Shown here: positions 7,959 through 32,210 of the stretch, piece after piece | How positions within the stretch are numbered: position 1 is the first letter of the stretch | How the letters are laid out: every line of letters begins with the position of its first letter | Program-made: the position numbers and the translations under genes | The notes under the pieces: model-generated | Seen by the model: the letters and a program-made list of their open reading frames with translations, nothing else | The model's database searches: none | What the model was told of the DNA's origin: nothing | Source of the DNA: a virus | Lineage: Duplodnaviria; Caudoviricetes | IMG/VR virus record: IMGVR_UViG_3300037424_000947 | Coordinates: 1-45,267 of that record | Strand: one strand, 5' to 3' | Length of the DNA: 45,267 nucleotides

Positions 7959-7960
7959 CC

Positions 7961-8047
7961 ATTGACTTTTTATCGTCAATGCCCTATATTGTTTTACATG
8001 GCTGGACGATCCAGCCACCCGCGCCTCGGGGTCAACGGTGGGCAGGA
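7961..8047 (+). promoter_or_regulatory. Repeated expression cassette, copy 1: sigma70 promoter, operator, structured leader, RBS
   Basis: TTGACT(7962)-17 bp-TATATT(7985); inverted repeat ATTGAC-N8-GTCAAT over the -35 box; near-identical to 8293-8379. Confidence 0.8.
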
Positions 8048-8054
8048 TAATAAA

Positions 8055-8276
8055 ATGAGCGATATCGAAGCCTATGACAAAAAGATCAAATACTGGAATG
8101 ACTACGCGAGGCGGTGGGGGCACAAGGCGACCTTGGAAAGGGCCACCCGAGCCTATGCCGGCGGCATTTTGGGCCGTGGCTTTTGTGAAGACGCTGCAGC
8201 GTTTGTTGCCCGCACGCCGCATCTTCGCGCAACCCTGGACTGGTTGAACCAAAACCGAACGAAGAAAAAGGCGTAA
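8055..8276 (+). CDS. Small orphan protein (anti-defence candidate)
   Basis: 73 aa from MSDIEAY, directly after the RBS of cassette copy 1. Confidence 0.65.
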   Translation: MSDIEAYDKKIKYWNDYARRWGHKATLERATRAYAGGILGRGFCEDAAAFVARTPHLRATLDWLNQNRTKKKA

Positions 8277-8292
8277 TTGTTTGAAATGGGGT

Positions 8293-8379
8293 ATTGACTT
8301 TAATCAGTCAATGCCCTATATTGTTTTACATGGCTGGACGATCCAGCCACCCGCGCCTCGGGGTCAACGGTGGGCAGGA
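8293..8379 (+). promoter_or_regulatory. Repeated expression cassette, copy 2
   Basis: TTGACT(8294)-17 bp-TATATT(8317); ATTGACT-N6-AGTCAAT; same leader and AGGA RBS as copy 1. Confidence 0.8.
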
Positions 8380-8386
8380 GACAAAG

Positions 8387-8788
8387 ATGGAAAACTTCAC
8401 CAACGTTTTCGCAGATGCCGACATCATCAGCCGCTACACCCGCGCGCAAGCGATTGAGGATGGCGTGCTCGTGGACCTGATGCAGGACAAGATGCTCGAT
8501 GTGTGCCGGCAGCACTACAAGCACCCGATCGCGGCCACTTCGGCGGTGTTCGACATCATGCAGCGCGCGGTCGAGAACAAGCGCCACTGCAACGACTACG
8601 CCGGCGTGCTGCACGACATGCTCTGGATGAGCCGCGTGTACAGCCGCAAGGTCGACGCCTCGACGGTGCTGTTCAAGGTCATCATCACCGGCGCCGCCCG
8701 CCAGCGCAATTTCGTGTTCAAGCTGGTGGTCGGCCCCGGCGACCAGGGCGAGCCGGTGATCACGATCATGATGCCGAACGAAGACTAA
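8387..8788 (+). CDS. DUF6573-like mobile-element protein
   Basis: YTRAQAIEDGVLVD N-terminal and GPGDQGEPVITIMMPNED C-terminal motifs; family recalled, not searched. Confidence 0.6.
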   Translation: MENFTNVFADADIISRYTRAQAIEDGVLVDLMQDKMLDVCRQHYKHPIAATSAVFDIMQRAVENKRHCNDYAGVLHDMLWMSRVYSRKVDASTVLFKVIITGAARQRNFVFKLVVGPGDQGEPVITIMMPNED

Positions 8789-8796
8789 CCCACCAG

Positions 8797-8827
8797 GACC
8801 CCGCCCACCCGGGCGGGGTCTCTTTTT
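8797..8827 (+). terminator. Intrinsic terminator
   Basis: GACCCCGCCC-ACCC-GGGCGGGGTC followed by TCTTTTT. Confidence 0.8.
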
Positions 8828-8837
8828 GTGAGGACCG

Positions 8838-9035
8838 ATGGCAGACCATAGCAAACGCAATTGGCAGCGCGCCATGCACGATCGTGCCGACCAGGTGGTC
8901 GGGGCGATGCTGGCCGAGACCCGGCCGCCAGCAATGAGCGCGGAGGAGTTTCTCGCGCAGCAGTTGCGTGCCGCCTACGTCACCGGCTACCGCGACGGCC
9001 GCGACTCGATGAAATCACGCGAGGGTCCACAATGA
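8838..9035 (+). CDS. Hypothetical protein
   Basis: 65 aa, GAGGA RBS, ATGA overlap with next gene. Confidence 0.6.
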   Translation: MADHSKRNWQRAMHDRADQVVGAMLAETRPPAMSAEEFLAQQLRAAYVTGYRDGRDSMKSREGPQ

Positions 9036-9244
9036 ACAAGAGAGAATTCGACCGCCGCATCAAGGCGCTCGGCACCCGCAGCCGTGCCCTGCCCGCTGCG
9101 CGCGCGGTGCTAGTCGACGGCGTCTCGCAGAATGCCGCCGCGCGCGAGCTCGAGGTCGACGTCGGCCAGCTCAACCGCCTTGTGACGCGCATCCGCGCGG
9201 TACAGATATGTGAGTGCTGCGGCCAGGCGATCGTCACCGACTAA
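9032..9244 (+). CDS. KorA/TrfB-like HTH protein with C-terminal Cys motif (Aca-like candidate)
   Basis: ARAVLVDGVSQNAAARELEVDVGQLNRLVTRI resembles IncP KorA ARGVLVDGKPQ...AVSQAVHRV; ends CECCG. Confidence 0.65.
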   Translation: MNKREFDRRIKALGTRSRALPAARAVLVDGVSQNAAARELEVDVGQLNRLVTRIRAVQICECCGQAIVTD

Positions 9245-20529: not shown

Positions 20530-20545
20530 GGTTTCCCGGGAAACC
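20530..20545. promoter_or_regulatory. parS/NBS-like site 3, perfect palindrome GGTTTCCCGGGAAACC
   Basis: 16-bp perfect palindrome in a short intergenic gap. Confidence 0.6.
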
Positions 20546-28887: not shown

Positions 28888-29154
28888 CTATCGCAGCTCA
28901 TCCACGATCCTCTCTGCCTGCGCATCCGACAGCGACAGTGCCGGCACGCCATTGCGATAGAGCACCATCTCGATCGCGATGCGCATCATGTAGTCCCGCA
29001 CCGGATCGGGTATCGACCGCGCGCCGCTGATCCACTCGTAGAGGCGGTTGCTCTGGTATCGCGTGCCGAGCACGCGATTGAGGTCGCGCAGGGCATCGGC
29101 CTTGGTGCGGCCGGGGATGAGCTCGGTGTCGAGCCAGGATTGCACGAGGGTCAT
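28888..29154 (-). CDS. Small HTH protein (Aca-like candidate)
   Basis: TKADALRDLNRVLGTRYQSNRLYEWISGARSIP is XRE-type HTH-like; last gene of a minus-strand operon; ATGA overlap. Confidence 0.6.
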   Translation of the reverse strand: MTLVQSWLDTELIPGRTKADALRDLNRVLGTRYQSNRLYEWISGARSIPDPVRDYMMRIAIEMVLYRNGVPALSLSDAQAERIVDELR

Positions 29155-29489
29155 ACGATGCCCAGGCGGGCCACGAGATCCGCACAGATGCGACGCTGCA
29201 CCGCCGCTACCGCCAGCGACGCCCGCGCGCGCGCGGTGGCAACAGGCGCGAACGCCCACATGCCATCGGGATTATCGAGCTGGAGATAGTAGCCGATCGT
29301 GATCGTCTCCGGGTCCTTGGGCGGCTGCTCGCCAGCGGCGCGCGCCTGGTCGCGCTCCGCGGCCAGTACCGGGGCGAGTGCCGCACGCCCCTCCTCGGTG
29401 GCGAGCGGGAATCGCCAGATCAGGCGATCGCCGATGTCACGCGCCGACTTCGCGGGGCGGACCTGGAATTGTTGACGGGTTGGATCCAT
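29151..29489 (-). CDS. Small orphan protein (anti-defence candidate)
   Basis: 112 aa, GAGGA RBS, coupled to the HTH gene. Confidence 0.6.
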   Translation of the reverse strand: MDPTRQQFQVRPAKSARDIGDRLIWRFPLATEEGRAALAPVLAAERDQARAAGEQPPKDPETITIGYYLQLDNPDGMWAFAPVATARARASLAVAAVQRRICADLVARLGIV

Positions 29490-29511
29490 CGGGTCTATCC
29501 TCGTTGCTGTT

Positions 29512-29622
29512 GTATTCCGGGCATCTGCCCGGCCTCATCGAAGTATCGAAGTCGGTACAAGCACCAGACTTCAACTGTGCACCATTCCGGCGGGGAGCAA
29601 TCCCCGCCGGCCTCATTGAAAC
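29512..29622 (+). CRISPR. Orphan two-repeat CRISPR-like unit with type I-G (I-U)-like repeats, no cas genes
   Basis: R1 GTATTCCGGGCATCTGCCCGGCCTCATCGAAGT (29512-29544); 37-nt spacer; R2 CCATTCCGGCGGGGAGCAATCCCCGCCGGCCTCATTGAAAC (29582-29622). Both share ATTCCGG-stem-CCGGCCTCAT(T/C)GAA. Confidence 0.65.
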
Positions 29623-29627
29623 CCCTC

Positions 29628-30038
29628 CTATTCTACGAGCACATGATGATGTGGCGGCCGCGCGCATACGCGGTAGCCGGGCACGTAGCCGGCTTCATAC
29701 CACACCAGCGGCGCGCCGCATACCGGGCACGGCGAGAAATCAGCCTGCTCCCACAGGGTGCCGATCTCGCCTGGGTATTCCGGTTCAATATCCATCCGCA
29801 GCGCGAGATGATCAGTGCCGACGATGCGCACCGCCACGACACCCTCTGGCACTGTATTGCCCAGCGCCACCGTGTAGATCTGATGCCCGCCATCCGCCGG
29901 CTCCGGCGTGATGCTGGCGCCGGCGCGCTGCAAGGCTTCGCGCGCTGGAATAGTCAGGCGCACGCGTTCATGCGGTCCCTGCTCGACGCTGGCGTGCTCG
30001 GGGAATAGGCCATCTCGTCTTTGATACGTGAGTTCCAT
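29628..30038 (-). CDS. Orphan protein with C-terminal Zn ribbon (anti-defence candidate)
   Basis: 136 aa from MELTYQ, AGGAG RBS, CPVCG...C....HH. Confidence 0.65.
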   Translation of the reverse strand: MELTYQRRDGLFPEHASVEQGPHERVRLTIPAREALQRAGASITPEPADGGHQIYTVALGNTVPEGVVAVRIVGTDHLALRMDIEPEYPGEIGTLWEQADFSPCPVCGAPLVWYEAGYVPGYRVCARPPHHHVLVE

Positions 30039-30126
30039 GTGATTCTCCTGCTGCGGTCCGCCGCAGCTATCGGGTGTAGCGAGTGCCCACCAGTGAGCCG
30101 GCTCTGACCCGGCTCTAGCTGGGCAC

Positions 30127-30447
30127 TCAATAATCGTGCTGGCAGGATGCGCAATCAGATGGCCGGGGGCGCCCCTCGATGCTACCGCACGAGCAACCGG
30201 TCCAATTCGTGCGCGCCATGCGGGCATCCCGGCGGGTCCCGATCGAGCTGTACGAGCCCGTGCGCGCCCCTTTCTCGATGGCGCAGAGCGCCACCCCATT
30301 GCCGCGCCAGAGCACACGAGCAATGATCTCCGTCTTGGTCTCGCCGGATTTTTTTGCAACGACCACGGACTGGCCGTCGCTGACAGACTCGGTGGGTACG
30401 CGCACACCCCAGTCGCCGTTCTTGAGCTTGGTGTAGGTTGCTTGCAT
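30127..30447 (-). CDS. Small orphan protein, first gene of accessory operon
   Basis: 106 aa, GAGGAG RBS, C-terminal CSC...CASC. Confidence 0.7.
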   Translation of the reverse strand: MQATYTKLKNGDWGVRVPTESVSDGQSVVVAKKSGETKTEIIARVLWRGNGVALCAIEKGARTGSYSSIGTRRDARMARTNWTGCSCGSIEGRPRPSDCASCQHDY

Positions 30448-30523
30448 GTGGATCTCCTCAGCATTCTGCTTAGGTCCGCCTGATCCCCGGCGGCGGGTGG
30501 TAGCTCATCTACCCATGAGCTAA

Positions 30524-30552
30524 ATGATAGTCCCGCATGTGGGACTACGCAA
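30524..30552 (-). promoter_or_regulatory. sigma70 promoter with palindromic operator
   Basis: Minus strand TTGCGT-17 bp-TATCAT; palindrome TAGTCCC-N6-GGGACTA (30528-30547) fills the spacer. Confidence 0.75.
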
Positions 30553-30583: not shown

Positions 30584-30597
30584 GTTTCCCGGGAAAC
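30584..30597. promoter_or_regulatory. parS/NBS-like site 4, GTTTCCCGGGAAAC
   Basis: Perfect 14-bp palindrome identical to the core of site 3. Confidence 0.6.
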
Positions 30598-30605
30598 CGG
30601 AGGGA

Positions 30606-32210
30606 TCAGGCGACCCGGTAAGCCTTGAATTTACGGGGATTCTTACTGCCAAACTCTTCCCCCGCTACCATATTTAGAATCAGGCCGCCGAACCCGGCGA
30701 CCTGAGCCCACACCGCCCCGCTCTCATCCTGAGTCAATTCAATCTCGCCGAGCAGCTCGCCCAGCGCCTCACGGGCTGCCGCGGGCTCGGTCGCCATCAG
30801 TGCGGGCAGATCGGACACGCGTGCTTGGTAGTGCTCGATGAGCCGCGGGATCATGTTCGGCGGCGCTGGTGCCGGCAGCTCGACGAGGTCCGCCTGCAGT
30901 GCCCGGCGCTCGGCTTCGGCTTTTTTCAGCCGTTCTGCCACCGCCTGCGACCAGCCCGCGGCCGCCACTGCGTCGACGAGTCGGGCGATCTCGCGATCGA
31001 CCGTGGCCAGCCTGGTGCGGGCAGCGCGGCCGGCCGTCTCGTGCTCGCGGTGCATCGTGCGCTGCAGCGTGGCCACCTCCTGGCGTAGCACTGTGATCGC
31101 CTCATCGTCCAATAGTTCACTCCGCGCGATCCCCAATACCGCCGCCTCGAGCTCGGCGCGTTTCACCCGCACACCGGCGCACACTGTCGGCCCGCGGTCC
31201 TTGTGCGCGGTGCAGCCATACGCGCCCGCGGTCACCGCCGTTACTGATCCGCCGCAGTGGCCGCATTTCAGGAGGCCGGAGAGCGGCGCGCGTTTCGGTT
31301 TTCCGGGCTTCGTTCGCTTGGGTCCGTTGATGCGTTCCGCGCATGCGGTCCACAGCTCCTCAGACACTATGCGCAGCGCCGGAGTTTCCCGCGTCTGCCA
31401 CTGATCGCGCGAGCGCTCGAGGCGCCGGCGCCGGCCTGTGTCTGGATCTTTCACCCACTGCGAGCGATTCCATATATACATGCCGCGATACAGCTCATTG
31501 CGCAGCACGCCCGTGCCGTATTTCGGCTGGCCGTAGAGCGCGCTGATGGCCCAGGAGCTGCCGCGCGGTGAGGGCACGCCGAGCCGGTTGAGCTCGTAAA
31601 CGATGCGCCGCGGCGCCCAGCCTTCGGCGTAGTGCTCGAAGCACCAGCGCACCCACTTGGCCTGCTCCTCGTGCACCTCAAGATAGTGGCCGATCGGCTC
31701 GCCCTTGGCGTCGAGGCCGGCGACGCGCGTGCGGTAGCCATAGCTTAAACCCCCGGCATGGTAGCCGCGCTCGGTCTGCCCGGTGAGGCCTCGGTGCACC
31801 TTCTTGCCGAGGTCGCGCAGGTACTGCTGATTGACGCCGCCGATGATGACGCGCTGCAGCTCACGGCCTTCGCGCTCCGAATCGTAGCCGTCGCTGATCC
31901 CGATGATGCGCACCCCGAGCCGCTCCATCTCGCGGATGGTGCGCTCCTGGTCGACGATATCGCGCCAGCACCGGTCGAGCGACTCGATGAGTAGCACGTC
32001 GACGCGCCCAGCGCGGATCGCCTCCATGAGCGCGCGGCCGCCGGGGCGCAGCAACGTGGGCGTGCCGGCGGAAACCTCGCTATCGGAGAAGCGCAGCGCC
32101 GGCAGCCAATCTTCACGCTGCATGCGCACGTCGGCCAGGTGGAACTGGTCGGCGATCGAGGTCTCGCGTTGGTTTTCGCTTGAGTAGCGGGCGTAAATAG
32201 CCGTCCTCAT
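30606..32210 (-). CDS. Large serine recombinase (integrase)
   Basis: IYARYSS catalytic Ser, SLDR, YGY recombinase domain, LSGLLKCGHCG Zn ribbon, coiled coil. Confidence 0.95.
   Translation of the reverse strand: MRTAIYARYSSENQRETSIADQFHLADVRMQREDWLPALRFSDSEVSAGTPTLLRPGGRALMEAIRAGRVDVLLIESLDRCWRDIVDQERTIREMERLGVRIIGISDGYDSEREGRELQRVIIGGVNQQYLRDLGKKVHRGLTGQTERGYHAGGLSYGYRTRVAGLDAKGEPIGHYLEVHEEQAKWVRWCFEHYAEGWAPRRIVYELNRLGVPSPRGSSWAISALYGQPKYGTGVLRNELYRGMYIWNRSQWVKDPDTGRRRRLERSRDQWQTRETPALRIVSEELWTACAERINGPKRTKPGKPKRAPLSGLLKCGHCGGSVTAVTAGAYGCTAHKDRGPTVCAGVRVKRAELEAAVLGIARSELLDDEAITVLRQEVATLQRTMHREHETAGRAARTRLATVDREIARLVDAVAAAGWSQAVAERLKKAEAERRALQADLVELPAPAPPNMIPRLIEHYQARVSDLPALMATEPAAAREALGELLGEIELTQDESGAVWAQVAGFGGLILNMVAGEEFGSKNPRKFKAYRVA
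30650..30670 (+). other. Putative attP core resembling a tRNA-fMet 3' end
   Basis: CAAACTCTTCCCCCGCTACCA ends in CCCCGCTACCA and lies inside the integrase 3' end. Confidence 0.5.

Follow-up and report, generated by a model that had tools for sequence, protein, structure and literature searches.

A predicted autorepressed accessory operon with an antisense pair of type I-G-like CRISPR repeats in a temperate phage

The window, by which we mean the whole stretch of DNA analysed, is an entire virus record of 45,267 bases with 11 bases identical at its start and end. It encodes terminase, portal, protease-capsid, tail and endolysin genes together with a repressor, a CII-like protein and a large serine integrase, and because of this gene content we assign it to a temperate tailed phage. 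The sequencing run that contains it best is a sediment metagenome, which may be its source. Between the integrase stop (30606) and the end of the convergent lysis region (28886), the minus strand carries a cassette of three small open reading frames (ORF1–ORF3) followed by a gene for a helix-turn-helix (HTH) protein (Table 1). The first-pass annotation had described here a minus-strand promoter with a palindrome in its spacer, four ORFs, translational coupling of the last one and CRISPR-like repeats. All of these are present in the sequence, the promoter and palindrome at the same coordinates and with the same letters, and the ATGA overlap that couples the 88-aa HTH gene to ORF3 was confirmed.

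Table 1 Features of the cassette and its setting, in window coordinates.
Feature	Position	Strand	Description
Predicted sigma70 promoter TTGCGT-17-TATCAT	30524..30552	-	TTGCGT 30552-30547, TATCAT 30529-30524
Operator palindrome TAGTCC-N8-GGACTA	30528..30547		Predicted HTH-protein site; 7-bp arms: TAGTCCC-N6-GGGACTA
Second palindrome TAGCTCAT-N6-ATGAGCTA	30501..30522		Straddles predicted start site
ORF1, 106 aa	30127..30447	-	N-terminal domain and C-terminal four-cysteine module
Structured ORF1-ORF2 intergenic RNA	30039..30126	-	Long hairpin past stop, short hairpin ahead of RBS
ORF2, 136 aa	29628..30038	-	Conserved family
Type I-G-like repeat 2	29582..29622	+	5-nt lead, 10-bp stem, 12-nt tail CCTC+ATTGAAAC
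Inter-repeat segment ('spacer'), 37 nt	29545..29581	+	Own hairpin
Type I-G-like repeat 1	29512..29544	+	5-nt lead, 6-bp stem, 12-nt tail CCTC+ATCGAAGT
Promoter-like site TTGACG-18-TATCCT	29472..29501	+	10 nt before repeat 1, overlaps ORF3 start
ORF3, 112 aa	29151..29489	-	GC3 0.79, RBS-like GAGGA
HTH gene, 88 aa, predicted autorepressor	28888..29154	-	ATGA overlap with ORF3
Large serine integrase	30606..32210	-	Directly upstream of cassette; context, outside cassette
Second accessory locus palindrome sites	7960-7981, 8293-8312	+	
DUF6573 gene in second accessory locus	8387-8788	+	
Terminal gene of second accessory locus	9032-9244	+	Weakly like KorA/TrfB, E 7e-5

Several features of the wider phage genome were recorded alongside the cassette. 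A palindrome, GTTTCCCGGGAAAC, lies just past the integrase stop (30584-30597) and has a second copy between two tail genes (20530-20545). The 3′ end of the integrase gene (30640-30665) resembles a tRNA 3′ end on the plus strand, including an ACCA end that we take to be a tRNA-like pattern, and could be an attachment site; a related integrase contig from groundwater run X2 has an alignment that begins at 30659. Comparison with nine tRNAs did not confirm an attachment site there, the matches reaching at most 14/30. A second accessory locus (7960-9244, plus strand), with a duplicated block of about 90 nt and its own palindrome over a promoter-like site, shows the same operator–cargo–regulator order as the cassette at 28888-30552 with another regulator.

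The HTH protein belongs to no Pfam, PHROG or NCBIfam family. A four-sequence profile retrieved 278 cluster representatives at E ≤ 0.001, all of them unnamed, and just 1 of 80 aligned family members touched HTH_3. Searches of viral and GTDB contigs yielded no true relative, the candidate L001 having been dropped as a 15-residue match, and neither the HTH protein nor ORF1 nor ORF2 had a match in 50,697 phage records. The AF2 model (pLDDT 93.4) adopts a five-helix Xre-type fold, as would suit the small HTH DNA-binding protein expected of an Aca; HTH rows predominate in the VIA list for this model, and Atlas concurs. The top row was Aca7, at a Z of 6.2 such as small helical folds commonly reach (rmsd 2.1, 58 aligned residues), tied with HigA2 (Z 5.9), an Xre protein (5.7) and MqsA, with Aca10 (5.3) and Aca1 (4.9) lower. 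Foldseek returned nothing significant, and an 80-sequence profile found no Aca chain at E ≤ 1 among PDB chains, a comparison that covers those of the named families Aca1-14 with structures. An Xre/Aca-type fold alone therefore does not make the protein an Aca.

The operon promoter matches the consensus at 8/12 positions, under the cut-off of the promoter scanner, and perfect palindromes whose arms measure at least 7 number 86 across the window, so neither element is significant alone. Their support comes from conservation in homolog loci. Context was available for ten loci with HTH homologs (six metagenomic, four on Halomonas plasmids; 82,788 bases, from the family of 278 clusters). The operator, which is single copy in the window with up to two mismatches allowed, occurred with all 12 half-site bases in 4 of these 10 loci (L047, L048, L090 and L091) and in none of 200 Markov resamples of the same bases. 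In each of the four it overlaps a TATAAT in the same register as the operator and −10 box of the window, with the first gene starting about 40 nt further on and the HTH gene lying 1.9-3.0 kb downstream; an inverted repeat over the operon promoter and linked to the regulator, as in Aca systems, was thus found in the window and in these loci. Their HTH proteins are about 40% identical to the phage protein while the cargo is unrelated to that of the phage (DUF5983, DUF2786/DUF7168 and unknown genes), and therefore repressor and operator appear to travel together as the cargo changes. The four positives represent one Halomonas plasmid lineage (L047 and L091 are 93% identical) and so amount to about one independent replicate.

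The operator was not found in the other 6 of the 10 loci: the operon head has apparently been lost in L051/L088 (99% identical) and L089, and L049, L050 and L052 belong to a different lineage, of which L050 has a gene for a DUF3560 methyltransferase upstream. The HTH gene is apparently the last of a co-oriented run in 9/10 loci, and a TrfB-like gene follows it in L090. Halomonas-type plasmids (L088-L091, L047, L048, L051) carry an operon of small, unknown genes that ends in the HTH family and mostly faces umuDC; in 3 of the 4 Halomonas plasmid records nothing is annotated on the strand of the HTH gene at its position. Across IMG/VR the operator with its −10 pattern gave 35 stretches, and the flanks of these (several of them short) contained no gene of the HTH, ORF1 or ORF2 families; these matches therefore look like chance, and the operator motif alone is no marker. 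The second palindrome may serve as a further, weak operator or may belong to a hairpin in the leader. The leader fold over it reached a z of −1.4, short of significance, no similar element was seen in the leaders of the HTH-homolog loci, and neither this fold nor the homolog leaders gave a sign of a conserved leader RNA as in Aca1/Aca2.

Conservation of the predicted operator alongside its regulator, a comparative sequence result, is the strongest of the analysis. We consider it quite probable that the two constitute a new Aca-like regulator–operator pair, and hold with similar confidence that the HTH protein autorepresses the operon. The 'new Aca family' of the first-pass annotation thus gained an HTH fold (AF2) and the same operator ahead of homolog operons; Aca membership itself did not follow, as the Pfam scan of the neighbours of HTH homologs (13 + 17 proteins, partly the same genes, in 10 loci) revealed no Acr family and hence no known acr gene.

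The three cargo genes had been described as orphans, which holds for ORF3, for which the searches run returned no relatives, but not for the other two. ORF1, for which Pfam, PHROG and NCBIfam gave no family, has 26 relatives; this group is modular, the four-cysteine C-terminal module standing behind its own N-domain or behind a DUF5710 domain. ORF2 has 208 relatives, again without a known family, and no match in the plasmid collection. Its residues C104, C107, C125, H131 and H132 are invariant and likely form a zinc site. The AF2 model of ORF2 is confident (pLDDT 95.6), and its best VIA row reached a Z of 3.8 with no Foldseek hit, so that no fold family stands above Z 3.8 among those listed, which is no proof of a new fold. 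The context of the ORF2 family was followed in 17 loci, L008 being left out because it duplicates L003. The ORF2-family gene is preceded by an ORF1-family gene in 7/17, an HTH or NikA-like gene is near it in four (L002, L009, L011 and L014; Pfam), and the HTH family of the cassette adjoins it in 0/17. In L011 (1309-2975), a unit of NikA-like gene, promoter, repeat tail and ORF1-family gene is duplicated in tandem with differing C-termini.

As the first-pass annotation had proposed, the intergenic RNA is structured: both the ORF1–ORF2 and the ORF2–ORF3 regions fold better than shuffled sequences (z −3.3 and −3.6). Rfam gave no match for the ORF1–ORF2 region, and a hammerhead reading of three hairpins was ruled out by eye and by Rfam. 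Among ORF2-family operons, an intergenic hammerhead II match of 35.7 bits (cut-off 37) was recorded in L004 (2162-2226) and a weak intergenic twister-P1 match in L005 (2451-2492).

The CRISPR-like repeats described inside the operon were recovered as a pair, reading on the plus strand and hence antisense to it. Because of this orientation the operator would not control them and, facing the opposite way from ORF1–ORF3, they would need a transcript of their own. Rfam CRISPR-DR16 matched repeat 1 with 28.3 bits (E 0.0007) and repeat 2 with 24.4 bits (E 0.012), both below the 35-bit gathering score. The reference here is T. sulfidiphilus, whose Csb2 binds the hairpin and cleaves at a point 4 nt 3′ to it, so that an 8-nt handle remains (PMC9638904); the tail of repeat 2 is identical at 14/15 positions to the T. 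sulfidiphilus I-G repeat taken from the supplement of the same paper. Both window repeats consist of a 5′ lead, a hairpin, 4 nt and an 8-nt ATTGAAGC-type handle, that of repeat 1 being a variant, and both stems differ from the 7-bp stems of two array repeats that were folded. The lead–stem–12-nt-tail geometry is shared with real array repeats from Csb2 genomes (3/3). Searching 301 genomes of one phylum for the window-type repeat pattern gave 1 match, in single copy, and no host; the exact two-repeat pattern had 0 matches in IMG/VR, and we found no mention of the repeat tail in the literature.

Upstream of repeat 1, the promoter-like site matches 9/12 consensus positions. Such sites number 2 in 8 kb against 1.7 expected, a frequency at chance, so that only its position makes it a suggestive candidate for the promoter of a repeat RNA. 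There was no RNA dataset among the runs listed as containing the phage. A 59-codon ORF with a strong RBS (29614-29437, minus strand) runs through both repeats; its codon pattern is flat, its longer 76-aa form is absent from the protein collection, and it is probably not a gene.

Two repeats around one spacer-length segment could form a functional mini-array that would use the type I-G Cascade of the host against competing phages, the operon being a separate autorepressed unit. Viruses are known to carry mini-arrays of one or two spacers (PMC11656645), a promoter-like site precedes the repeats, and their start-to-start distance of 70 nt comes close to that in a real I-G array (71-76 nt). However, the known mini-arrays have repeats identical to those of the host (PMC11656645), whereas repeats 1 and 2 have unlike handles and stems of 6 and 10 bp. 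The 37-nt segment folds on itself, opens with a duplicate of the repeat handle and found no target in 50,697 phages, 72,556 plasmids or the window, the spacer-only search being confined to these collections. We regard a mini-array as unlikely.

Groundwater run X2 bears on the same question with a 251-nt contig (depth 2.2) that spans 29527-29773, where the end of ORF2 is retained together with repeat 2. It differs from the window by 15 substitutions (12 listed) and one 14-nt gap between the repeats. Both listed substitutions in repeat 2 fall at loop positions, and the gap with three substitutions abolishes the spacer hairpin. This pattern would fit selection on the repeats and not on the guide, on the thin evidence of a single shallow contig that may carry errors. 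We favour a decoy over a mini-array because the stem is kept while the X2 spacer loses 14 nt, and because RacrIF1 inhibits by way of its repeat hairpin together with the stretch of RNA that precedes the cut (PMC10651486). That the repeat RNA acts as a decoy rather than as a targeting RNA is a judgement we hold at about even.

Repeat tails of this kind also occur near relatives of the cargo genes. Two of the 17 ORF2-family loci contain 7 I-G-like tails (three in L004, four in L011) against about 0.7 expected, an enrichment that is partly circular because the pattern was tuned after those loci had been seen; there were none in 45 control loci (346,242 bases) and none in 8 ORF1-family loci. Two tails in L004 and two in L011 continue without a break into an RBS and ATG, and L029 has three copies before small genes. 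A scan for such repeat-tail–RBS fusions gave 27 stretches, many looking like chance. Tails fused to the RBS of small phage genes, several per operon, were seen in L004 (2810-3500), L011 (1671-2770), L029, L027, L036 and L045, and mRNAs with such a fusion might be processed by host Csb2.

Alternatively, the operon could be an autorepressed moron, expressed early or in the lysogen for a role other than anti-defence (host modulation, superinfection exclusion or toxin–antidote), with the repeats a decaying relic of array capture. Its own promoter and its place between the integrase and convergent lysis genes would agree with this, as would the generic nature of Xre-type autorepressors (HigA2, MqsA and Xre tie with Aca7), the fact that most ORF1 and ORF2 loci are without repeats, and the cargo of the HTH-homolog operons, in which the Pfam scan of neighbours revealed no known anti-defence family. 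A relic is harder to reconcile with two repeats that retain paired stems and the 12-nt tail although their stems differ, with the loop position of the X2 changes and with the tails placed before RBS and ATG in L004 and L011. Since the stems stay paired, the tail is kept and the X2 changes lie in the loop, selection on the repeat fold is suggested, and we give the moron reading a low probability.

According to the original proposal, the HTH gene would be a true aca and at least one of ORF1–ORF3 a protein that inhibits type I-G CRISPR systems. Small proteins, an acr-aca layout and I-G repeats do coincide in one locus, L004 and L011 have I-G-like repeats next to genes of the ORF1 and ORF2 families, and viral racr genes form clusters with acr genes (PMC10651486). 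Direct evidence for protein inhibitors did not emerge: the link to type I-G is through RNA repeats on the opposite strand, and ORF2 resembles no Acr in sequence or fold. Relatives of ORF2 are found in Planctomycetota, Myxococcota, Verrucomicrobia and Acidobacteria bins with different regulators, and Csb2 was detected in 0 of 5 ORF2-carrying genomes, which are incomplete and in whose scan no positive control matched, although the Csb2 model matched in other genomes. We find this proposal improbable. Equally improbable, in our estimate, is a two-layer anti-type-I-G cassette that would unite a new Aca family repressing new protein inhibitors (ORF2) and an antisense twin-hairpin decoy for Csb2, as one form of a wider phage strategy (L004, L011, L029) of RBS-fused I-G repeats by which host Csb2 would be titrated and would itself process the anti-defence mRNA.

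The reading we prefer is an autorepressed accessory operon of a temperate phage, likely serving anti-defence, with the antisense I-G repeat pair as decoy RNA; as a whole we consider it about as probable as all others together, and the anti-defence purpose of the cargo, judged separately, is likewise evenly balanced. Following the Aca paradigm, the promoter would fire on entry or induction, when repressor is absent, and ORF1–ORF3 would be made early. The translationally coupled HTH protein would then accumulate, bind the palindrome as a presumed dimer and block RNA polymerase; this step draws on the HTH fold and operator conservation. A short plus-strand RNA from about 29505 would carry the two I-G hairpins with their 4+8-nt tails, Csb2 would cut the hairpins without letting go of them, and the structured, non-targeting segment would be loaded with Cas7, titrating Cascade. 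For this step the repeat geometry is observed, and we infer transcription and inhibition. ORF1 and ORF2, which travel together in similar cassettes, would be likely zinc-binding early effectors.

Among the papers listed by literature searches on type I-G and anti-CRISPRs, none mentions an I-G inhibitor in its title or abstract opening. The locus offers three proteins and one RNA as ready candidates for trial in a reconstituted type I-G system. The regulator–operator pair, which the phage shares with Halomonas plasmids, is a new marker for mining anti-defence cargo, and ORF2 is a confidently modelled protein with more than 200 relatives and no fold match.

Known acr-aca operons consist of small genes followed by a terminal HTH gene, with an inverted repeat over the promoter (PMC13551039, PMC12658196). 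The layout of the cassette matches theirs, as first proposed (PMC13551039): it has the small genes, the terminal HTH gene and, over the promoter, an inverted repeat that is about 20 bp long, and Aca7 is the top structural row. It differs in that its HTH protein has no sequence match to PDB Aca proteins and is predicted to bind, that its operator is unlike the 19-bp Aca7 repeat of PMC12658196, and that no known acr was seen in the cassette or in the homolog operons scanned. With viral mini-arrays it shares two repeats around one spacer-length segment, but its repeats are non-identical and the segment is structured, variable in length and without a target in the collections searched. Like RacrIF1 and RacrIC1, the cassette has intergenic host-type repeats on a phage, a promoter-like site upstream and small accessory genes around, and no cas genes were seen among the phage ORFs scanned. 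A solitary repeat has no neighbour, whereas here two repeats lie 37 nt apart, and the SRUFinder rule against neighbouring repeats would exclude this non-identical pair (PMC10651486). RacrIC1 is co-transcribed (PMC10651486), whereas the cassette repeats are antisense to the operon, and they are of type I-G, a term absent from the main text of that paper. In its workings the locus resembles an acr-aca locus that carries a Racr-like passenger, but it can be filed as neither.
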